Shown here: piece by piece, positions 1,358 through 13,521 of the stretch
How the letters are laid out: the number at the start of each line of letters is the position of its first letter
Numbering within the stretch: the stretch's first letter is position 1
From: Bryobacterales bacterium
GTDB taxonomy: Bacteria; Acidobacteriota; Terriglobia; Bryobacterales; UBA6623
Assembly: GCA_965226435.1 (NCBI GenBank)
Contig: CBDDCY010000007.1
Location: forward strand, 17,680 to 81,679
Direction: 5' to 3'
Length of the DNA stretch: 64,000 nucleotides
Translations under genes and position numbers: made by a program
The notes under the pieces: model-generated
The model's database searches: none
Told to the model about the DNA's origin: nothing
The model's input: the letters and a program-made list of their open reading frames with translations, nothing else

Positions 1358-3601
1358 GTCTTCTCCCCGGCGTCCTGTCCCTCGCGTCTCGTCCGCGGCC
1401 GTCAGACCATGAGCCGACGAAAGATGCGCCCGCGAATCCCAACGGGTAAAGAATCCGCGAAACGAAGCCAAAGGGGGAGACAGTCCCCGAAACTACCCCC
1501 GAACTCCCCCGGGTGACAATTTACCGGACGATTCCCTCGAACCGGGATTGATTCGCTTACGGTCTACGCGCCGCCCCGCCGTTACTGGCAGACTCTGGAC
1601 GACGGGCGACCGTTGCTGCAGTTGTTCGAGCAACAGTCCGAATCACGCACGCATGAGTCCGGGTTGGGCAAGCATGAACCCGCGCATGCCGGATCGATAC
1701 TGCACTCATCATCATCGCAATCGGTCTGACCGTCGCAGTCGTCGTCGATACCGTTTTCGCAATTATCCGCCTCCGGAAAACCGGTCGGCGTGCACGCGAA
1801 GTCGCCCTTGCACGTTTTGTCGTTGCCGCCCCGGCATTTGTCCGTGCAGCAGTCGGCGTCCTCGAAGCAGGGGTCGCCTTGTAGGCCCAACGAGCAACTC
1901 TGCTGACAGGCCGGCGCCAGGTCGCAGTCGACCGTGTCGTCGCAATCCGTGAGGCCGTCGCAGTCGTTGTCAACTCCATCCGTACACGAGGCTTCCGACT
2001 CGCTCTGGCAAGCGCTGTCGTCACAATCCGCGACGTCGTTGCAATCGTTGTCAAGCCCGTCGTGACATGCGGTCTCGGGCGGCAGGCCGCTACAGGCATC
2101 GTCCGCGCAGTCTACGAGAAGGTCACAATCATTATCAATACCGTCGTCGCAAACTTCCGGGGCTTCAACACAGCTACCGCACTGCAACGGCAGGTCGAAG
2201 TTCTCGGTGACGTTCAGACTGTTGGGGCTGCCGCCGTCATCGGCGTTGGCGCCCATGCCGCGCTTGGCGAAGGCTTCCCAGATCAGACACTCGTTGGCGC
2301 CGCCGTTGTTAACTTGATCGGCCACGAGGATGGCGTCACGCGCATCGAGGAAGGTGGGGTTACAACCCTGCAGCTTCAATCCGTCGACAACGAGTTGGAT
2401 GGCGGTGTTGTTGCGGCCGCTGCCGTCGTAGAAATTGGGGTCGAAGCCGATGGCCGGATCAACAACCAGTTTCCAATACATCTCCCACACCGCGGTAGCC
2501 CATACCGTGCCGACACCGTGAGGCACCGACAGCGCACCGGTTGTGAGATCGCCGTAGGTTAGCGGATTGACCGCCATGTCCGTGGTGTAGGGATACGGCC
2601 GGATCCCCGCGCCCTCCGAACTATCGAAGATGACGTAGGAGCCGACGCCTCGCTGCGTTGTCGCCGTATCCGCCGCCGTCGCGGTGAAGAACAGGGCGCA
2701 GAGATCGCTCCATCCCTCTCCCGCCCGCTGGTTGCCGGACAGGCAACTGCTATTGGCGGCACCGCCGGTCAGCCGATTGGAGAGGCCGTGACAGTACTCG
2801 TGCGCGATGATGCCGGCGTCGAGATCGCTGTCGCGATCGAGTGGGGACAACCGACGAATCGTGCCTGCCGCCGGCAGCCCGCTCTTGATCGTTCCGCCAT
2901 TGTTTAGGCTGACCATGACCGAAGGGATCGTGATGCTGCCGCCGCCACCGCCGTCACCCATCGTGATCGGGCTTCCTGCAACGTTATTGACGATGATAAC
3001 GCCCTTTGCCCCCGCGTTTTGGGCGTTCTGGACCTTGACGACGAAGTCGCAAGAGCCCCTATCGGCAATGGCAATGTCGCCGCTGAAGTTGATAAGCGAC
3101 TCGCAGGCATCGGTTGAACTGCCCGTGTCGTCGTCGACCAGCTCCAAGCTTCCCGATACGCCGGTGTTGTTGAGCGCCGGACCGAACACCGCGCCGGAGG
3201 CGACGTAGCTGCCCGGCGCACTCCCGGAGTCAACCACCACCTCGTTGGCGTTCCCCGCTGTCCACTCGTACATTTGCATGCGCGGGTTGAACCCATCGGG
3301 GGGAGTCGAAAAATTGGCGTTGTTGATGCCGGAACCATCCTGGGCGTCGGCGTTGACCGAGTCACTACCGGCCCCCCCTTTTCCGTAGTTGTTTTCCTGG
3401 AAGTTGCCCGAGTCCTCGTCGAACCCGTACTGGTAAAGCAGATCGTGCAAGACGTTGTTCCAGTAGAAAAGGTTCGTGACCGCCGCGTCCCGATAGTCGA
3501 CGGGCTGCTGGGTCAGAAGATCAAGAGGCGACGTGAAATCAAGGCCGGCGCCGCCGTTCGGCTGGATATTGGGGTCGCAGGCCGAGTTGTTGCGGTCGCG
3601 G

Positions 3602-5015
3602 GAGCTATAACCATAAGTTGTGGATGAGCCTCTGAGGGGAGGCGGCGTATCCTGACGATTGAGGAAGCAACTCAATCGTTTTCTGGAAAGGAACAAGGAG
3701 GATACGCCATGAGTCAGTGTGAAGCTGCTGAGAGCAGCAGTCAAGTCAACCCCCAAGTCATTGATGGAAAGGAACGCTCGCCCTTGGATGAGGTGCTGCG
3801 CCAAGGAGCGCGCCAGATGCTCGTCAAGGCCGTGGAAGCCGAAGTGACCGCCTACATCGAAACGCATCAGCACGAAGTCGACCAGGACGGCCGGCGGCTG
3901 GTGGTGCGCAACGGTCACGCCCGCGAGCGCACCATCGTCAGCGGCGTGGGTCAGCTGAAGATCCAGGCGCCGCGGGTCGACGATCGCCGAGTCGATGAGC
4001 AGGGCCGGCGCTTTCGTTTCACTTCCCAGATCCTGCCGCCGTATCTGCGGCGCACGAAGAGTGTGGAGGAGTTGATCCCCTGGTTGTGCCTGAAAGGGAT
4101 CTCGACGGGCGATTTCAGCGAAGCGCTGGAGGCCTTGCTGGGGCCCGACGCTCCGGGCCTGTCGGCGACGACGGTGGTGCGTCTCAAAGACGTCTGGCGC
4201 CGCGAGTACGAGGCTTGGTCAAAGCGTGACCTCAGCGGCCAGCGGTTTGTTTACATTTGGGCCGATGGCATCTACTCGAATGTTCGTCTGGACGATGAAC
4301 GGCAGTGTTTGCTGGTTGTGATGGGAGCACTCGAAGACGGTCGCAAGCAACTGCTGGCGGTGCACGACGGCTTTCGCGAAAGCGAACTGTCGTGGCAGGA
4401 GTTGCTGGAGGACTTGAAACGGCAGGGGCTCGAGCTGCCGCCGAAGTTGGCGGTGGGCGACGGAGCGATGGGGTTTTGGGCGGCACTGCGGAAAGTCTAT
4501 CCGGCGACCGGTGAGCAACGCTGCTGGCTCCACAAGACGGCCAACGTGCTCAATAAGCTGCCGCAGAGCATGCAGGGCAAAGCCAAGCAGGCGCTGCGCG
4601 ACATCTATCTTGCCGAGAGTCGGCAGACGGCGGAGGCCGCTCTGGACCGTTTCAAGAACCTATACGAGAAGAAGTTTCCCAAAGCGGTCGAGTGCCTGGA
4701 AAAAGACCGCCAAGTGCTGCTGGCTTTCTACGACTTTCCGGCCGAGCACTGGGGGCACTTGCGGACGACGAACCCGATCGAGTCCACCTTTGCGACGGTC
4801 CGTTTGCGGCAGCGACGAACGAAGGGTTGTGGCAGCCGCGAAGCGTCGTTAACGATGGTCTTCATGCTGGCCCGCCAAGCCGAGCGCCACTGGCGACGCC
4901 TGAACGGTTCGGAAGTGATTGTTCATGTCTTAGAGGGAAAGGTTTTCAAGGATGGATTGATGGTTCAGGAAAACGCCGCCTGACCTCGCCCATCCACAAC
5001 ATTTGACAATATCTC
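3602..5015 (+). mobile_element. IS256-family insertion sequence, 1414 bp, apparently intact
   Basis: Imperfect 25-bp terminal IRs GAGCTATAACCATAAGTTGTGGATG (3602-3626) and CATCCACAACATTTGACAATATCTC (4991-5015); 9-bp target duplication CGGTCGCGG at 3593-3601 and 5016-5024. Confidence 0.93.
3709..4983 (+). CDS. IS256-family (Mutator-type) DDE transposase
   Basis: 424 aa; RNGH, YIWADG, LAVGDGAMGF, QRCWLHK and RTTNPIES motifs. Confidence 0.95.
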   Translation: MSQCEAAESSSQVNPQVIDGKERSPLDEVLRQGARQMLVKAVEAEVTAYIETHQHEVDQDGRRLVVRNGHARERTIVSGVGQLKIQAPRVDDRRVDEQGRRFRFTSQILPPYLRRTKSVEELIPWLCLKGISTGDFSEALEALLGPDAPGLSATTVVRLKDVWRREYEAWSKRDLSGQRFVYIWADGIYSNVRLDDERQCLLVVMGALEDGRKQLLAVHDGFRESELSWQELLEDLKRQGLELPPKLAVGDGAMGFWAALRKVYPATGEQRCWLHKTANVLNKLPQSMQGKAKQALRDIYLAESRQTAEAALDRFKNLYEKKFPKAVECLEKDRQVLLAFYDFPAEHWGHLRTTNPIESTFATVRLRQRRTKGCGSREASLTMVFMLARQAERHWRRLNGSEVIVHVLEGKVFKDGLMVQENAA

Positions 5016-6019
5016 CGGTCGCGGTCTTCCTGGGCGCAAACGTTGTTGCCGCGCGTGGTGGTGAACTCCGCGCCTGCGGACCCATTCGTGTCGTGCCAGC
5101 CGAAGGGCGAAGCGGCCACGGTCGCCGGGTTCACCTCAGTCGTTCGCCCGCCGTCGTTGGGTGACTCCTTGGGCAGGGCGAAGACCTCGTAGCTGTCGTT
5201 AGCGATCCAGTCGACCTTGGCCAGGATCTCGCCGCCGGCGGCGTCGACCCAGAGGTTCCACCAATGCTGCTGGTCGGTCTGACGAATGTTCATCTCCCAG
5301 CTCAACCGCACTTCACCCGAATCGAGTGCATAGTAGGCGAGCTTGACGGGGATCTCGTCGAGTGACAGGCCGGCTCCGCTGAAACGCGCCTGCTGCTCGC
5401 GTCCGCCGGTCCCTCCGGTTTGGACGAGCAAGCCCGAGATCTCAAGACCCAGCTCATCGGCGGCATCACGGATAGCGCTTTCGGCATTGAGCCCCGGTTG
5501 CTGTGAGTTGACCTTGCCGGCCAAATTGCCGACAAAGCGGGCGCCGACGCTCAGCACTTGACCGTCCGCGGTCACGTTGACGTTGATGGTGCCGTTGGCA
5601 ACCGCTATCCCTCGCAACTGTTGGCGGAAGTAGATGTGAGTCACGCCATTGTGCTTCGAAAGGTATTGATTCGTAACGGCTTTGCCGGCCAGATCTCCGG
5701 CCGTAAGGCCAAGAGCCGCGGCGTTATCGTCGAGATGGCTCAAGGCGACCTCAAGGGGCGGCTGTGCCTGCGCCCACACGGAGCCGGGCAGGGCAAGCAA
5801 AGCCAGGCTCAGCAACAGGAATCCTGATCGCGGTGTCTTGAGTCGGGTCATCGCTTGATCTCCTTGGTCGTAGGCCGGCAAGAAATACAGGAGAATCCTA
5901 GCACGATACGCAACTTCTGTCCATGGTTGTTCGATTCCATCTAAGCTTTGCCGTCCTGTTCGGGTTCGGCGCCACGGTTATCCCCAACCTGTTTCGAGGT
6001 GTTGAACCGGAAACCCGCT

Positions 6020-7063: not shown

Positions 7064-7202
7064 CACACGGTTTCGCTTTGCTTCACACCGCGGGCTACTT
7101 TCCGGCGCCCCCTCCGGCGGCCGGCCCCTTGGTTTTCCACCCTCACGTTGCACACCCCGAGCGCCGGCGCACGGGCGTCCAAGACGTTTACTATAGAGAT
7201 GA

Positions 7203-7601
7203 GTGCGGAAGCAACTTGCAGGCGTTCTTTGCCCCGTCTTGCTGATGGCTTTTCAGCTGGGGCCGGTCGTCCATTTCCATGTGGACGAGCACGAGACTGC
7301 TCATGTCGGGGCCGAGCATCCGCAAGGGTTCGCGGCCCACATTCACGTTGACCCCAATGGACGGCCGACCGCCGAGGATGACGAGCCGAAAGTTGGTCCC
7401 GTTGACGGCGACGAAGACCTGGTTGAGCTTTCTTGGCTACAGTCGGAGCGACCGCAAACGCCTCATGCATTGCCCGCCGTCAGGTCGCCGGCCCGCGCGG
7501 CTACCCCGGTCGTCGCTGTTGTTGGAAACCCGCCGCAAGAGCCGCGAATCCACGATCCTCCGTTTGCATCGTCGATAATCCCCCGAGCTCCGCCCGCCTA
7601 A
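7203..7601 (+). CDS. His-rich leader protein ending in RAPPA (DUF2946/CzcI/CruR-like)
   Basis: Hydrophobic N-terminus, HFHVDEHETAH and AHIHV, C-terminal IIPRAPPA; stop 61 nt before the efflux operon. GTG start not certain. Confidence 0.7.
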   Translation: MRKQLAGVLCPVLLMAFQLGPVVHFHVDEHETAHVGAEHPQGFAAHIHVDPNGRPTAEDDEPKVGPVDGDEDLVELSWLQSERPQTPHALPAVRSPARAATPVVAVVGNPPQEPRIHDPPFASSIIPRAPPA

Positions 7602-7662
7602 CACCCGCCTAGGAACGATTCCTTTCTTTGGGCCCTAGGGTCCCCGTCCGCGAGGTTGAATC

Positions 7663-8886
7663 ATGATTGCGAAGGCATGCATATTCGCGCGCCTGAGCCT
7701 TCTGGTCTGCTGTTTGGCGACACTGACCGCCGCTCAAGAGCTGACCGAGAGGCAGGCGCTGCAACTTCTTCGAGAAAGTCCGCTGTACCGAGAATTGCAG
7801 GCTCGGGTGGAGGTGTCGCGCGCGGAATCGCGGCGCGGGACGTTGTACCCGAACCCCTCGGTGACAACAACATTCGAGGGCGCCGGACGAACGGATTACT
7901 ACATTTTCGAACAGCCTCTGGCCGTCAGCGGACGGCGTCGCTTGTTGCGGCGGGCCGGCGAGTCCGCCGTCGCCGCGGCCGAGGCCGAGGCCGACCACGC
8001 TTTGCATCAGATCGAAGCCGGACTGCGGGGCGTTTTCCATCAGCTCGCCTACGCGCGGAAGCGAAGAGGCGCCATTCGCGCGAGTATCGACGAACTACAA
8101 AAGCTCGTTCGCATCTTGCGGGAGCGCGAGAAGGCAGGCGAGGGATCGCGATTCGATCGTTTGCGCGCCGAACGAGAGGTTGTCGAGCGCGAGACCGAAT
8201 CGGCCGATGCGGAGGCCGCCATCGCCGAGTCGAGAGCGGCGCTGGCGGGCTTTCTCGGTGAGTCGGTGGATTCGGAACACTTGATTGCACGGGGCACGCC
8301 GGTGTCCGACGGTGCACTGCCGGATCTGAACGAAGCCCTCGCGGACGGCCTCGCCGCTCGTAGCGACTACCAGGTCGAGAACGAGCGGTTGGAACAGCTC
8401 CGGCTCGAGGGCGAGGCGGCGGATCGCCTGCGCATCCCCAACCCCGTCATCTCCGGCGGGCTGAAACGGGAGCAGATCGGCGACCGCTATGCGAAGGGTC
8501 CCGTGCTGGGTTTCTCGATCGATTTGCCGTTGTTCAACAAAGGACGAGTGGAAAAGCGGTTGGCCGAAGCCAAAGCGGCTCGCACGCGCGCCCGCCGCCG
8601 CGTTCTCGAGAGCCGCATTCTCGCCGAGGTGCGTGCCGCGCACGGTTCCCTTCGACTGCGCCGCAAGATCGCCGAGGACTACGAGTCGAAGTCCGGACGG
8701 CGTGCCGAAGAACTCCGCGAAATCGCTGAAATTGCCTACCAAGAAGATGAACTGGGCATCTTGGAACTGCTCGATTCCTATCGAGTGGCTCAACGCGCGA
8801 AGCTGCGGTTGCTGGAATTGCAAGCGGTCGCCAAGCAGGCGGAGATCGAGTTCGACCGCACCGTCGCCAAGGAGCTGTTGCCATGA
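7663..8886 (+). CDS. czcC: TolC/CzcC-family outer membrane efflux protein
   Basis: Signal peptide, YPNPSV motif, helical repeats, IDLPLFNKG, ELGILELLDSYR; overlaps next gene (ATGA). Confidence 0.85.
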   Translation: MIAKACIFARLSLLVCCLATLTAAQELTERQALQLLRESPLYRELQARVEVSRAESRRGTLYPNPSVTTTFEGAGRTDYYIFEQPLAVSGRRRLLRRAGESAVAAAEAEADHALHQIEAGLRGVFHQLAYARKRRGAIRASIDELQKLVRILREREKAGEGSRFDRLRAEREVVERETESADAEAAIAESRAALAGFLGESVDSEHLIARGTPVSDGALPDLNEALADGLAARSDYQVENERLEQLRLEGEAADRLRIPNPVISGGLKREQIGDRYAKGPVLGFSIDLPLFNKGRVEKRLAEAKAARTRARRRVLESRILAEVRAAHGSLRLRRKIAEDYESKSGRRAEELREIAEIAYQEDELGILELLDSYRVAQRAKLRLLELQAVAKQAEIEFDRTVAKELLP

Positions 8887-10427
8887 AATTGCACATTCTT
8901 GCCGCTGTCGTGATGCTGTCGGCTTGCGGCGGTTCGCCGCCGCAACCGGATGCCGCTGCTCCCCCCGCGGACGTCGACCCCGTCGCCGTCACCCGCTGGA
9001 CCGAGAAGACCGAGTTATTCATGGAGTACCCGCCGCTTCAAGTGGGCGAGGTGGCTCGTTTCGCGGTGCATCTGACGGACATGAGTTCCTTTGAACCCCT
9101 ACAGCAAGGACATGTCGAGGTGCTTCTGGTCTATGAAAACGGTTCCCGGGAGAGCTTCGCCGTCGACGGCCCCTCACGGCCCGGGATCTTTGGGGTCGAC
9201 GTCACCCCGACCCGAGCGGGATCAGCGGCGATGACGGTTCATGTGCGATCGACGACGGTCGAAGACGCCCACGATTTGGGGCCCACGACGGTTAGCGATG
9301 CGGGCCGACCCGGCGACGCTTCCCCGAGCGCGAACGGGGAGGAACCGGAGACCGGAGATATCTCCTTCTTAAAGGAGCAGCAATGGGCGCTCGACTTCGC
9401 GACGGAGCTTGTCGGCCTCAAGCCGATGCGCGAAAGCTTCGTCGTGTCGGCCACGATCGAGCCTCGCACTGGAGGCCGCTTGGCGGTGACCGCGCCGGTT
9501 TCGGGTCGCCTGCTGCCGACCGTCCAATTGCCGACTCTGGGAGCATCCGTCGAACCGAGTGAGAACCTCGGCACCGTCGTTCCCCTGTGGGGCGGATCGA
9601 CGAATCGCAGCACTCTACAGCTTCCAATCGACGAAGCGAAGGTCGCCTTAGAGTCGGCCCGGAGAGAGCGGAAGCGCGCCGAGAGACTGCTCGCGGCGGG
9701 CGCCGTCCCGGCTCGCCGGCTGCAAGAGGCCGAGGCCCGCGAGGCGGTCGTGACGGCGCAACACAAGGCGGCGGAAGAACGAATGGCCTACTACGAAGCG
9801 ACCCGCCGCGACGATCCTCACCGGGAATCACAATCCGCCTTCTCGATACGATCGCATCTCGCGGGAGTCGTTACGGCCGTCTATGTGACCGACGGAGCCC
9901 ATGTCGAGGAAGGCGACACGCTGCTGGAAATCGCCGCCACCGACATAGTGCATGTGTCGGGCGCGCTGCCGGAATCGCGAGCCCTGATTCTGCAAAAGCT
10001 GCGAGGCGCGGAAATCGAGATCCCCGGGTCGGAGGCCTCTTTGCCGGTCGTCAAGCTTATCTCGACCGCGCGAGTCGTGGACCCGGCGACGCGAACCCTC
10101 AAGACCACCTACTTAGTGGATAACACCAAGCGGAAACTGGCGATCGGCCAGTCCGTCTTCCTCCGCTTGTTTACCTCGGAATCGGTGGAGGCGCCTACTG
10201 TTCCAAGCTCGGCGGTTGTGGATGAAAGCGGCCGTAAACTCGTCTACGTGCAAACCGGCGGAGAGTCATTCGAGGGGCGTCCGGTAAAGCTCGGCAACCG
10301 CCGGGGCGGGGAAGTTCAGATCACTGAAGGGCTCCGGTCCGGTGAGCGGGTCGTCACACAGGGGGCTTATCTTGTGCGGCTGGCGTCAATCTCAGCCAAC
10401 GCCCCGGTTCACGGGCACGCCCACTAA
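8883..10427 (+). CDS. czcB: RND periplasmic adaptor (CzcB/CusB family), lipoprotein
   Basis: Lipobox LSAC; VTAPVSGR; VDPATRTL; VPSSAVVDESG...VYVQTGGESFE...GLRSGERVVTQG; C-terminal HGHAH. Confidence 0.9.
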   Translation: MKLHILAAVVMLSACGGSPPQPDAAAPPADVDPVAVTRWTEKTELFMEYPPLQVGEVARFAVHLTDMSSFEPLQQGHVEVLLVYENGSRESFAVDGPSRPGIFGVDVTPTRAGSAAMTVHVRSTTVEDAHDLGPTTVSDAGRPGDASPSANGEEPETGDISFLKEQQWALDFATELVGLKPMRESFVVSATIEPRTGGRLAVTAPVSGRLLPTVQLPTLGASVEPSENLGTVVPLWGGSTNRSTLQLPIDEAKVALESARRERKRAERLLAAGAVPARRLQEAEAREAVVTAQHKAAEERMAYYEATRRDDPHRESQSAFSIRSHLAGVVTAVYVTDGAHVEEGDTLLEIAATDIVHVSGALPESRALILQKLRGAEIEIPGSEASLPVVKLISTARVVDPATRTLKTTYLVDNTKRKLAIGQSVFLRLFTSESVEAPTVPSSAVVDESGRKLVYVQTGGESFEGRPVKLGNRRGGEVQITEGLRSGERVVTQGAYLVRLASISANAPVHGHAH

Positions 10428-10434
10428 CATCGCC

Positions 10435-13400
10435 ATGCTGAATACACTCATCCGATGGTCACTCGCAAACCGGCCTCTAGTCGTGGCGCTCACTGCCGCC
10501 TTTCTTGCCTGGGGCGGTTATGCGGTTAGCGGGCTTCCTATCGATGTGCTGCCCGACCTCACCGCGCCGACGGTGACCGTCATTATCGAGAACCCGGGCA
10601 TGGCGCCCACGGACATGGAGTTCCTGGTCACGTTCCCGCTCGAGACGGCGGTGAACGGCGCTCCCGGCGTTCGACGGGTTCGCTCGTCGACAGCGGTCGG
10701 GGTGAGCATGATTTGGGTCGAGTTCGACTGGGGCGAGGACGTCTTCCATGCCCGGCAGACGGTGACCGAACGCCTCAACGTAGCCGCGGCATCGTTGCCG
10801 CCGGGCACCACCCGGCCGCTGCTGGGACCGATCTCGTCGGTGATGGGAGATGTTCTCTTCGTGGCGTTGACGTCGGATCGCCACAGCCCCGTGGAAGTGA
10901 GAACGGTTGCGGACACGGTGATCCGTCGGCGGCTTCTCGCCATCCCCGGAGTCGCCCAAGTGACGCCCATTGGCGGTGGACGCAAGCAGTACCAAGTATT
11001 GCTCTCCTCGCGGAAACTCCAGGCCCATCAGGTTACACTGACCGAAGTCGAGGACGCCCTCACCGCCGCGAACGCCAACACCTCGGCCGGCTTCCTGGTC
11101 ACCGGTGGACAAGAATACCTGATTCAGGGCATCGCCCGGCTCACCGATTTGGATGACATTCGCCGAACCGTGGTCACCTCCAGGAACTCCATTCCAATCC
11201 ACATAGAAGATCTCGGCACAGTCCGGGTCGGCGAGGCGCTCAAGCGCGGTGAAGGTTCACTAAACGGCGAGACCGCCGTCGTGATCGGCATCCGAAAACA
11301 GCCTCAAGTGAACACCCTCGATCTGACGAGCTCGATCGACCAAGCCCTCGAAGACATGGCAGCGAACCTGCCCGACGGCATGCGAATCGACGACCGGGTC
11401 TTTCGTCAGGCCGATTTTATCGAGGTCGCGATCGCCAATCTCGAAACGGCCCTGAGCTACGGAGGCTTGCTGGTCGCCGCGGTCGTCATCATCTTCCTGG
11501 CGAACGCCCGCGCGAGCGCCATCACGCTGTTCGCCATTCCTTTCTCGCTGTTCGCCGCCTTCCTTGGGTTCCAGGCGCTGGGGTTGTCGATCAACAGCAT
11601 GACGCTCGGGGGCCTCGCGATCGCGATTGGCGAACTTGTGGACGATGCCGTCATCGATGTGGAAAACGTCTTCCGCCGTCTGCGCGAGAACGCCCGACTC
11701 CCTCAACCCGACCGACGCTCCGGCCTCGAAGTCGTCTACCAAGCCAGCCTCGAGATCCGAGGTTCGGTCGTCTTCGCGACGCTGATCATCATGCTGGTCT
11801 TCGCCCCATTGTTCTTCCTGGGCGGGGTGGAGGGCCGGCTGTTGCGCCCGCTGGGTTTCGCCTACATCACCGCCCTGTTTGCGTCGCTCGTTGTCGCGCT
11901 GACCGTTACGCCGGTGCTTTGTTCGTATCTGCTTCCGCGAACGAAAGCGGTGATGAAGAGGGACGCCCCGGCGGTGATTCGTTTTCTCCGGAAGCTATAC
12001 CTCCCGGTCATTCGCTGGAGCTTGGCCCACGGCTCCCTCGTGATGGCGGCGTCGTTCATGGTGGTCGCCGTGGGGGTTGCGAGTTTTGGGTGGATGGGCC
12101 GCTCGTTTCTCCCCGAGTTCAACGAGGGCACGCTGACGATCGGCGCGGTCACGATCCCGGGCACGAGCTTGGAAGAGTCCGACCGGCTGGGTTCCGCTTT
12201 GGAAAAGATTCTGCTCGAGGTACCGGAAGTGGTTTCGACCGGCCGCCGAACCGGCCGAGCCGTACTGGACGAGCATCTGCAGGGAGTGGAGGCAACGGAA
12301 CTAGAGGTGCGTCTGGAGATGGGCGAGCGCCCGAAGGAAGAGGTCCTCGAAGAGATTCGCGAACGGGCCACGCTGATCCCGGGAACGCGGATCAATATCG
12401 GTCAGCCGATCTCTCACCGTGTCGATCACATGCTCTCGGGAACCCGCTCGAACATCGCGGTCAAGATCTTCGGCGATGATCTCATCACCCTTCGCGCCTT
12501 GGCCGCGCGGGTCGAGCAAGCGATGCGAGATACTCCGGGCGTCGTTGACTTGGCATCCGAGCAACAGACCGACATTCCCACCGTGACGGTTCGCTTCCGC
12601 CGAGACGCTCTGGCCCGCTACGGCATGCCGGCGGGGACGGCCGCGCAAGCCCTCAAGACAGTGTTTCTTGGTTTGGAAGTCGGCTCGATTCTCGAAGGGC
12701 AAGTCGCTTTCCCCCTTGTAATTCGGTACGAGGACGGCCAACCAGAGGATATGGAGACGATTCGACAGGTGCTGATCGACACCCCCTCGGGGGCGCGAGT
12801 GCCTCTATCGGCGATTGCGGATATCCGCGAAGACCGTAGTCCGAACTTCGTGACGCGGGAGAACGGGAGGCGTAAGATTGTGGTCTCTTGCAACGTGGTC
12901 GGGGGCGATTTGCGGGGAGTGGTCACGGAGATTCAGAAGCGGATTGCCGAGGACGTGAAGCTGCCGCGCGGTTACCGCGTCGAGTATGGAGGTCAGTTTG
13001 AGAGTGAGGCCGAGGCGACCCGCCGTATCGTATCGCTCGGCACCCTTGTGATCGTCGGAATCCTGGTCTTGTTGGCGACGGTCTTCCGGTCCTGGCGTGA
13101 CGCGCTGATCATCATGTGCAACCTCCCGCTGGCGTTGGTCGGAGGCGTTGTCGGCGTCTTTCTCGGGGGCGGGATCTTGTCGGTGGCTTCTCTGATCGGC
13201 TTTATTACGTTGTTCGGCGTAGCCACGCGCAACGGCATCATGTTGATCTCACACATCCGGCACTTGATCAAGGAAGAGGGTGTGACGGATTTCAAAGAGG
13301 CGATCACCCGCGGCTCGTCGGAGCGTGTTGCGCCAATCCTGATGACGGCGATGTCGACCGGGCTGGCTCTGATACCGATCGGCCTCGGGTTGGGAGAAAC

Positions 13401-13521
13401 CGGCAGCGAGATTCACGCGCCGCTTGCGCTGGTGGTCATGTGCGGCCTCTTCAGCTCGACCGTGCTGAACATGATCGTCGTGCCGGCGGCCTATTGGCGC
13501 TTCGGCCGGTTGGAGAATTGA
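10435..13521 (+). CDS. czcA: Heavy-metal efflux RND permease (CzcA/CusA family)
   Basis: LPIDVLPDL, GLAIAIGELVDDAVIDVENV, FLPEFNEG, GFITLFGVATRNGIML, ERVAPILMT. ATG at 10435. Confidence 0.93.
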   Translation: MLNTLIRWSLANRPLVVALTAAFLAWGGYAVSGLPIDVLPDLTAPTVTVIIENPGMAPTDMEFLVTFPLETAVNGAPGVRRVRSSTAVGVSMIWVEFDWGEDVFHARQTVTERLNVAAASLPPGTTRPLLGPISSVMGDVLFVALTSDRHSPVEVRTVADTVIRRRLLAIPGVAQVTPIGGGRKQYQVLLSSRKLQAHQVTLTEVEDALTAANANTSAGFLVTGGQEYLIQGIARLTDLDDIRRTVVTSRNSIPIHIEDLGTVRVGEALKRGEGSLNGETAVVIGIRKQPQVNTLDLTSSIDQALEDMAANLPDGMRIDDRVFRQADFIEVAIANLETALSYGGLLVAAVVIIFLANARASAITLFAIPFSLFAAFLGFQALGLSINSMTLGGLAIAIGELVDDAVIDVENVFRRLRENARLPQPDRRSGLEVVYQASLEIRGSVVFATLIIMLVFAPLFFLGGVEGRLLRPLGFAYITALFASLVVALTVTPVLCSYLLPRTKAVMKRDAPAVIRFLRKLYLPVIRWSLAHGSLVMAASFMVVAVGVASFGWMGRSFLPEFNEGTLTIGAVTIPGTSLEESDRLGSALEKILLEVPEVVSTGRRTGRAVLDEHLQGVEATELEVRLEMGERPKEEVLEEIRERATLIPGTRINIGQPISHRVDHMLSGTRSNIAVKIFGDDLITLRALAARVEQAMRDTPGVVDLASEQQTDIPTVTVRFRRDALARYGMPAGTAAQALKTVFLGLEVGSILEGQVAFPLVIRYEDGQPEDMETIRQVLIDTPSGARVPLSAIADIREDRSPNFVTRENGRRKIVVSCNVVGGDLRGVVTEIQKRIAEDVKLPRGYRVEYGGQFESEAEATRRIVSLGTLVIVGILVLLATVFRSWRDALIIMCNLPLALVGGVVGVFLGGGILSVASLIGFITLFGVATRNGIMLISHIRHLIKEEGVTDFKEAITRGSSERVAPILMTAMSTGLALIPIGLGLGETGSEIHAPLALVVMCGLFSSTVLNMIVVPAAYWRFGRLEN

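Follow-up and report, generated by a model that had tools for sequence, protein, structure and literature searches.

A histidine-rich leader upstream of an acidobacterial czcCBA operon, a candidate metal-sensing arrest peptide

In the DNA studied here a small, histidine-rich protein is encoded directly upstream of a czcCBA heavy-metal efflux operon beside which no regulator gene is found. The question raised by this locus is what such a protein does, and in particular whether its translation could control the pump genes in cis, as the initial annotation had suggested in calling it a candidate metal-sensing arrest peptide. By analogy with CruR of Bordetella pertussis and CutF of Rhodobacter capsulatus, the gene is most likely an acidobacterial candidate for the metal-sensing arrest-peptide leaders of the CruR/CutF type. 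What is new is an unannotated, cysteine-free family of leaders; the kind of regulator has already been described.

The leader gene and its operon

The window, i.e. the whole 64-kb stretch of DNA that was analysed, contains a single credible small open reading frame ending in R[AGS]PP, and this is the leader (Table 1). Its protein reads MRKQLAGVLCPVLLMAFQLGPVVHFHVDEHETAHVGAEHPQGFAAHIHVD...PRIHDPPFASSIIPRAPPA* and ends, by direct reading, in IIPRAPPA followed by the stop codon, RAPP being residues 128-131. The N-terminus is basic and then apolar (MRKQLAGVLCPVLLMAFQLGPVV), and the histidine cluster of the protein is HFHVDEHETAHVGAEHPQGFAAHIH. The hydrophobic N-terminus, the HxH clusters and the C-terminal PRAPPA described in the initial annotation were all found in the ORF at 7203-7601. 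The distance of 61 nt between the stop codon and czcC was likewise correct, the TAA lying at 7599-7601 and the ATG of czcC at 7663. The span of 7203-7662 assigned to the feature begins at the right codon, but 7662 is the end of the spacer and not of the ORF, which closes at 7601.

Based on conservation of the codon itself and of the N-terminal residues, GTG is taken to be the correct start of the leader. Met15 was ruled out as a start because Ile is found at this position in the orthologues L003/L004. A basic n-region and 19 apolar residues can be read at the putative export signal, in which no clear signal-peptidase site could be seen by eye. When AlphaFold2 was run with the family alignment, one helix (residues 2-19) was predicted and the rest of the leader was disordered, with a mean pLDDT of 58; a folded metal-binding domain was rejected on this prediction of disorder. 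None of the 26 aligned members of the leader family matched a Pfam model at E <= 1, and no NCBIfam model matched the leader protein of the window.

In five lineages (the window, L003/L004, L006, L008 and L010) the GTG or ATG start of the leader is preceded at 8-9 nt by a -10-like hexamer of the form TAnnAT (TACTAT, TAATAT or TAGAAT). Before the start codon no Shine-Dalgarno sequence can be made out, and a consensus promoter scan gave no full sigma-70 match. The position of the hexamer together with the missing Shine-Dalgarno sequence suggests that the mRNA is leaderless or nearly so, with GTG as its start.

Table 1 Features of the leader and the czcCBA operon (positions in the window)
Feature	Position	Strand	Remarks
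-10-like hexamer TACTAT	7189..7194	+	8 nt before GTG start
Leader gene, His-rich mini-protein, putatively exported	7203..7601	+	132 aa, GTG start, TAA stop
Putative N-terminal export signal/signal anchor	7206..7271	+	R2 K3, apolar L5-V23, read from sequence
His cluster H24-x-H26 ... H30, H34, H39 ... H46-x-H48, putative metal-binding sensor	7272..7346	+	
Variable spacer segment, length conserved	7347..7526	+	dN/dS 0.6-1.08
Semi-conserved acidic/amphipathic block D-x-x-A-V-x-L-S-W-x-Q-S-E	7410..7448	+	residues 70-82
Putative arrest module NPPQEPRIHDPPFASSIIPRAPPA	7527..7598	+	HDPP 7551-7562, RAPP 7584-7595
61-nt spacer	7602..7662	+	small hairpin 7608-7613 / 7634-7639; czcC Shine-Dalgarno GAGG 7652-7655
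czcC-like outer-membrane factor, OEP/TolC-type	7663..8886	+	PF02321, E = 7.7e-25
czcB-like periplasmic adaptor, CzcB/CusB-type	8883..10427	+	TIGR00999, TIGR01730
CusA/CzcA-family heavy-metal RND permease	10435..13521	+	TIGR00914, 800 bits vs cutoff 701

Downstream of the leader the order czcC-czcB-czcA bears out the metal RND operon that had been proposed, the permease matching the heavy-metal family model TIGR00914. The start of the permease gene was set after the 1028-aa gene call of the orthologue L005. Among solved structures the nearest to the permease were CusA (501 bits) and ZneA (448 bits), multidrug pumps scoring at most 282 bits. The methionine triad of CusA, M573/M623/M672, is aligned to G, A and H in the permease (the offset of the chain numbering was inferred from the tag length), and assignment to the CusA-type Cu(I)/Ag(I) subgroup was therefore rejected. 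As the Cu(I) triad is replaced, the pump is more likely, judging from its sequence, to export divalent cations than Cu(I)/Ag(I). By reading of its translation, CzcB has a lipoprotein-type signal (LSAC) and a His-rich C-terminal tail (VHGHAH).

The association of leader and pump is constant. In all 12 loci for which downstream DNA was available (the window, L001-L006, L008-L011 and L013), czcC lies 55-94 nt downstream of the leader, and it is followed by czcB and czcA wherever the contig reaches far enough, also behind leaders that are only 26-40 % identical. A regulator gene next to the operon was sought in the window and none was found, in agreement with the earlier reading: the upstream neighbours are a transposase gene and a truncated M36 peptidase gene, and the downstream neighbour encodes an arabinofuranosidase. 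At L013 the leader-czcC unit is directly preceded by co-oriented genes for a PAS histidine kinase and for a response regulator (1453-3638); this pair is absent at the other loci. Two-component system and leader may be combined in some lineages.

Conservation and selection in the leader family

A word-indexed search with the leader returned three close relatives, and a genome scan gave four MAG loci of Bryobacterales (Acidobacteriota) with 63-92 % identity to it. When 1.84 billion cluster representatives were searched exhaustively with an HMM, 30 proteins were obtained at E <= 1e-3. The family thus collected comprises about 30 cluster representatives which are 25-92 % identical and share the same architecture, with a core of about 120-150 aa. 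The short members have a common layout: a hydrophobic N-terminus, the pattern aP-x-x-H-x-H ... H ... H-x-H, an acidic stretch with A-V-x-L-S-W-x-Q-S-E, and a C-terminal P-R-x-H-D-P-P-x6-P-R-[A/S/G]-P-P.

An alignment of 26 sequences, with a mean column identity of only 27 %, was used to define the constrained positions. Eight columns (H24, H26, H46, P119, P120, R128, P130 and P131) are invariant, and P21, H39, H48, H117 and P127 are conserved in at least 90 % of the sequences. The N-terminus is hydrophobic in every one of the 26 homologues. Each member has 8-14 histidines; outside the signal region no Cys is conserved, and three of the 26 have no Cys at all. Conservation of RAPP in homologous leaders had been named in the initial annotation as a check on the arrest-peptide idea, and R-[A/S/G]-P-P proved invariant in these 26 diverse homologues, as RAPP in 15, RSPP in eight and RGPP in three. 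The lack of conservation that would have spoken against the idea was not observed, and the earlier interpretation is in this way supported in part.

The spacing of the conserved elements is constrained as well. HDPP and RxPP are set 11 residues apart, counted from H to R, in 26 of 26 members, and the same Arg follows the first HxH at a distance of 104 residues in 16 of them, with a range of 93-107 over the whole alignment. The motif is separated from the stop codon by one residue in 17 members and by 1-13 residues across all 26.

Selection was estimated between orthologues by the Nei-Gojobori method. The overall dN/dS of the leader was 0.41-0.58, and it was unevenly distributed: 0.33-0.42 for residues 2-50, 0.6-1.08 for residues 51-108 and 0.08-0.23 for residues 109-132. 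The C-terminal peptide is the most constrained part of the leader, and the middle, which is near-neutral, acts as a spacer. The dS of the last 24 codons was ordinary (0.17-0.64), and together with the low dN/dS of the C-terminus this indicates that selection acts on the peptide and not on the RNA that encodes it. The leader gene is real and under purifying selection, the spacing of its modules is fixed and its linkage to czcCBA does not vary.

Comparison with known arrest leaders

The literature agrees with the initial annotation that RAPP is an arrest motif of the ApdA/ApdP class (PMC12992588) and that CruR is a DUF2946 protein which uses RAPP for copper-dependent control of its downstream gene (PMC9426467, PMC12992588). 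Arrest at RAPP occurs with E. coli ribosomes as well as with those of B. subtilis (PMC10951233). In in vitro translation RAPP and RGPP cause arrest and RSPP is partly permissive, and in many phyla no tetrapeptides are more depleted than RGPP and RAPP (PMC12992588). According to the source data of the same study, the observed/expected ratios in Acidobacteriota proteomes are 0.12 for RAPP, 0.08 for RGPP and 0.20 for RSPP, which places all three motifs of the leader family among the most avoided tetrapeptides in this phylum.

The leader has three features of the RAPP class: a motif near the C-terminus, conservation at the peptide level and a position directly upstream of, and co-oriented with, czcC. 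With ApdA/ApdP and the RAPP/RGPP class of small ORFs (Sakiyama 2021, PMC7897499; Morici 2024, PMC10951233; PMC12992588) it shares the same C-terminal-proximal motif, an N-terminal localisation signal and the place upstream of a regulated gene, signal and regulation being proposals in the case of the leader. ApdA and ApdP differ in monitoring the activity of Sec or YidC and not metals.

CruR (BP2923 of B. pertussis; Roy et al., mBio 2022, PMC9426467) resembles the leader in several respects. Its RAPP is near the stop codon (three residues away, compared to one in the leader), the distance between metal motif and RAPP is fixed, disorder is predicted, and it heads a metal-homeostasis operon. Expression of its downstream gene depends on RAPP (PMC9426467), and in vitro the ribosome is arrested with one of the two Pro codons in the P site and the other in the A site (PMC12992588). 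The spacing of CXXC to RAPP in CruR is conserved and matters for regulation (PMC9426467), and the fixed distances from HxH to R and from HDPP to R in the leader family are a parallel to this. However, CruR is a DUF2946 protein with CXXC which senses cytoplasmic Cu independently of its signal peptide, and its spacer is 162 nt, compared to 61 nt for the leader. In addition, Cu relieves the stalling of CruR, Rho then terminates transcription before an uptake gene, and the result is repression; the proposed target of the leader is an efflux pump, for which the logic would be opposite.

CutF (R. capsulatus, cutFOG; Ozturk et al., mBio 2023) is closer to the leader in its logic. Both are small, Sec-targeted (for the leader, putatively so) and directly upstream of a metal-detoxification gene, and both have an N-terminal signal and a metal-binding motif (the two being putative in the leader), a C-terminal proline stall motif and a spacer of less than 100 nt; induction by metal would be the logical direction for either. 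In CutF, binding of periplasmic Cu during co-translational export is coupled to a stall at the C-terminal PPP, which melts a stem-loop over the cutO ribosome-binding site (PMC9973294; bioRxiv 10.1101/2025.02.05.636593). The differences are that CutF is a DUF2946 protein with CxxxC and PPP that senses Cu, whereas the leader family has histidines in place of a Cys motif and ends in HDPP-x7-R[ASG]PP, and that the stem-loop masking the cutO ribosome-binding site has no demonstrable counterpart at the leader.

Membership of the leader family in DUF2946 (PF11162) was rejected. When the family was compared by hhalign with 10 DUF2946 sequences from the EMBO J 2025 supplement, the probability was 11 % and the match was confined to the last 15 tail columns; the family has no Pfam match and neither CXXC nor CxxxC, and shares with DUF2946 the C-terminal RAPP feature alone. 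The mechanism of CruR and CutF is therefore transferred to the leader by analogy and not by homology, the resemblance being, as far as can be judged from the sequences, one of design only.

CzcI of Cupriavidus metallidurans (czcNICBADRS) is, like the leader, small and exported (putatively so for the leader), its gene directly precedes czcC, and a role in metal-sensing regulation has been suggested for it. It is without the C-terminal proline motif (PMC9973294) that the leader has. No match to the leader was obtained at E <= 1 in a tblastn search of 72,556 plasmid records, and since Pfam and NCBIfam also gave no shared match, the leader was not assigned a CzcI or plasmid homologue.

The idea is less novel than the initial annotation implied, because leaders of this kind upstream of OEP and RND genes are listed in two surveys. 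Ozturk et al. (mBio 2023) found OEP genes (CusC/CzcC) to be the commonest downstream neighbours of CutF-like genes, and the His-only clusters of their survey, SSN 14 and 17, adjoin HupE/UreJ and not RND pumps (PMC9973294). In the source data of the EMBO J 2025 survey, the genes enriched downstream of RAPP small ORFs include those of the TolC family (530 cases, 5.5-fold), RND adaptors (620 cases, 16-fold) and CusA/CzcA (50 cases, 28-fold); these RND-linked entries are uncharacterised and are not discussed in the text of the paper (PMC12992588). The exact motif of the leader family had no match in the part of its uORF list that was covered. One protein of the list, MYN68176.1, encoded upstream of a TolC-family gene, matches the leader-family profile over its full length (hhalign 93 %, E = 3e-7) and is, on this profile comparison, a probable relative.

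Proposed mechanism and alternative explanations

In the reading that we prefer, stalling at RAPP is modulated by metal and controls czcCBA in cis; on the analogy with CruR and CutF we consider this probable, with moderate confidence. Stalling, export, binding of metal, the direction in which the operon responds and an output at the RNA level are all inferred from the features described above. The leader would be a short-lived, largely disordered mini-protein acting as the cis regulatory leader of the heavy-metal efflux operon. Its N-terminal signal would take the nascent chain to the Sec translocon, bringing the His cluster (residues 24-48) into the periplasm. The ribosome would then stall at HDPP-x7-RAPP, Pro130 occupying the P site and Pro131 the A site, just as at the RAPP of ApdA, ApdP and CruR. 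At the stall about 80-100 residues would lie between the His cluster and the peptidyl-transferase centre, a length that spans tunnel and translocon: with Pro130 in the P site some 35-40 residues would be in the ribosomal tunnel, a further 20-25 or so could span SecYEG, and the His cluster would already be outside. The amphipathic block at residues 70-82 would at this stage lie close to the translocon or to the end of the tunnel.

If the histidines bound a divalent metal (Zn, Co, Ni, Cd or Cu(II)), the pulling force on the nascent chain would be altered and by this the lifetime of the stall, as has been proposed for CutF, and a ribosome that remained stalled for long at the leader's end would permit expression of czcCBA. 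Stalling induced by metal that switches the operon on, i.e. the CutF logic, is the direction we prefer as the sensible one for an efflux pump. For the output there are two options: the stalled ribosome could keep the ribosome-binding site of czcC open, as in CutF, or the stall could block premature termination or decay of the transcript in the spacer, as in CruR.

The RNA between the leader end and czcC was analysed for both options. Folding of 7560-7680, which had also been recommended as a check, gave neither an unusually stable nor a convincingly covarying switch. Across orthologues the small spacer hairpin shows one compensatory change (G-C to A-U, in L004), while in L003 one of its pairs is broken. 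From six close orthologues RNAalifold predicted a helix between the codons for A129-A132 and the czcC Shine-Dalgarno sequence with one covarying pair. The fold stability of the leader end and spacer was not above that of shuffled sequences (z = +1.5 and +0.1), and the predicted accessibility of the Shine-Dalgarno sequence was unchanged when the footprint of a stalled ribosome was blocked. Any sequence coding for Pro-Pro is C-rich and pairs with the Shine-Dalgarno sequence at about -9 to -10 kcal/mol, and in an exhaustive comparison the native RxPP codons paired no better than their synonymous alternatives (fraction at least as good 0.22-0.97). A scan for anti-Shine-Dalgarno partners placed the best partner at differing positions in differing lineages. 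With these three controls (accessibility, synonymous codons and partner scan) an RNA switch of the SecM/CutF type that hides the czcC ribosome-binding site had no support beyond chance, and we do not claim it. No intrinsic terminator was found in the spacer, the one terminator-like match (7497-7513) being inside the ORF and at the level of shuffled sequences, and the excess of C over G in the spacer was small (21 vs 16).

An RNA switch is thus not demonstrable, which would be expected if the leader worked in trans as a mature protein, i.e. as a periplasmic or membrane-anchored, His-rich accessory protein of the pump. Such a CzcI-like or chaperone-like protein could buffer metal, hand it over to CzcB/CzcA or modulate the pump, with the C-terminus as a protein contact or degradation tag. 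It would account for the invariant His cluster; the leader also holds the place that czcI has upstream of czcC in Cupriavidus (PMC9973294), and CzcB of the window likewise has a His-rich tail. We nevertheless consider it unlikely. Disorder is predicted beyond the signal helix, and the strongest selection is on a motif that bacterial proteomes purge for stalling ribosomes. For a simple binding tail, neither the position of the motif within 1-13 residues of the stop in all 26 members nor the fixed spacer length would be expected, and CzcI itself is without such a motif. The plasmid records offered no similarity to the leader.

It is less probable still, and in our view quite improbable, that stalling at HDPP and RAPP is constitutive and unrelated to metal. 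The stall would then couple translation of the leader to initiation at czcC, or buy time for targeting, and set a fixed level of expression, and the metal would be sensed by an unlinked regulator. The Shine-Dalgarno pairing available to any Pro-Pro coding sequence fits such an arrangement, as does the two-component system directly upstream of the distant homologue at L013, but most loci, the window included, have no adjacent regulator, and a constitutive stall leaves no role for an invariant His cluster at a fixed distance from the stall site. A chance open frame over a conserved element that is really a non-coding 5' UTR, conceivable in GC-rich genomes where spurious ORFs are plentiful (several overlap the leader region) and given the missing Pfam and NCBIfam matches, is effectively refuted by the family alignment, in which homologues with 25-40 % identity retain frame, length and motifs, and by the selection estimates: at either end of the ORF dN/dS is far below 1, and synonymous divergence is ordinary.

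Metal-modulated stalling in cis thus remains our preferred explanation, and it can be taken one step further, to a more specific version which is possible but which we regard as rather doubtful. In this version the family consists of distinct, independently evolved, cysteine-free translational sensors of periplasmic divalent metal (Zn, Co, Ni or Cd), which would act through histidines and switch on an HME-RND pump without a protein regulator. The invariant distance of 11 codons from HDPP to RAPP would have a function: it might hold a following ribosome back just before it collides with the stalled one, or HDPP might make an extended contact at the tunnel constriction. The GTG-start mRNA would be leaderless. 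The features specific to the family are the histidine-only putative sensor, the invariant double proline module HDPP-x7-RxPP and the likely leaderless GTG-start mRNA.

If correct, the model would extend metal sensing by arrest peptides from copper and cysteine, as in CruR and CutF, to divalent metals and histidine, and would place an RND efflux pump of Acidobacteriota under the direct control of an arrest peptide. A response of czcCBA to metal with no two-component or MerR/ArsR regulator adjacent would be accounted for as well. To our knowledge almost no gene regulation has been characterised in this phylum. The fixed spacing of the two Pro-Pro motifs makes the family a simple test case for the tuning of RAPP stalling by upstream sequence. 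As the general class is already catalogued, the gain would be a well-defined new family and a testable model rather than a new principle.

In three metatranscriptome runs, contigs 95-97 % identical to the leader, and so from a related strain, extend over its 3' half only (7326-7591, 7385-7544 and 7412-7609). No contig extends over czcC; these are assembled contigs of low depth, from which absence cannot be read. Two of the contig ends, 7591 and 7609, fall close to the codons of the predicted stall or to where a stalled ribosome would have its leading edge, possibly by coincidence. As weak evidence, the coverage is compatible with termination or trimming of leader transcripts close to the stall site while the pump is uninduced.

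Upstream of the leader, an IS256/Mutator-family transposase gene (PF00872, E = 9e-62; 3709-4983, + strand) abuts the truncated M36 fungalysin peptidase gene (4946-5881, - strand), of which nothing remains beyond the propeptide and profile positions 1-58 of 368. L005 has an intact peptidase of 943 aa, encoded 246 nt upstream of the leader, and the IS therefore appears to have interrupted the copy in the window. In three metatranscriptome assemblies the depth over the transposase region was 90-620x, compared to about 0-5x for the neighbouring genes; the transposase is probably a multi-copy, expressed element. DNA near-identical to 7150-8150 of the window was found in many public runs, sponge metagenomes among them, and the source is probably a sponge-associated lineage of Bryobacterales.
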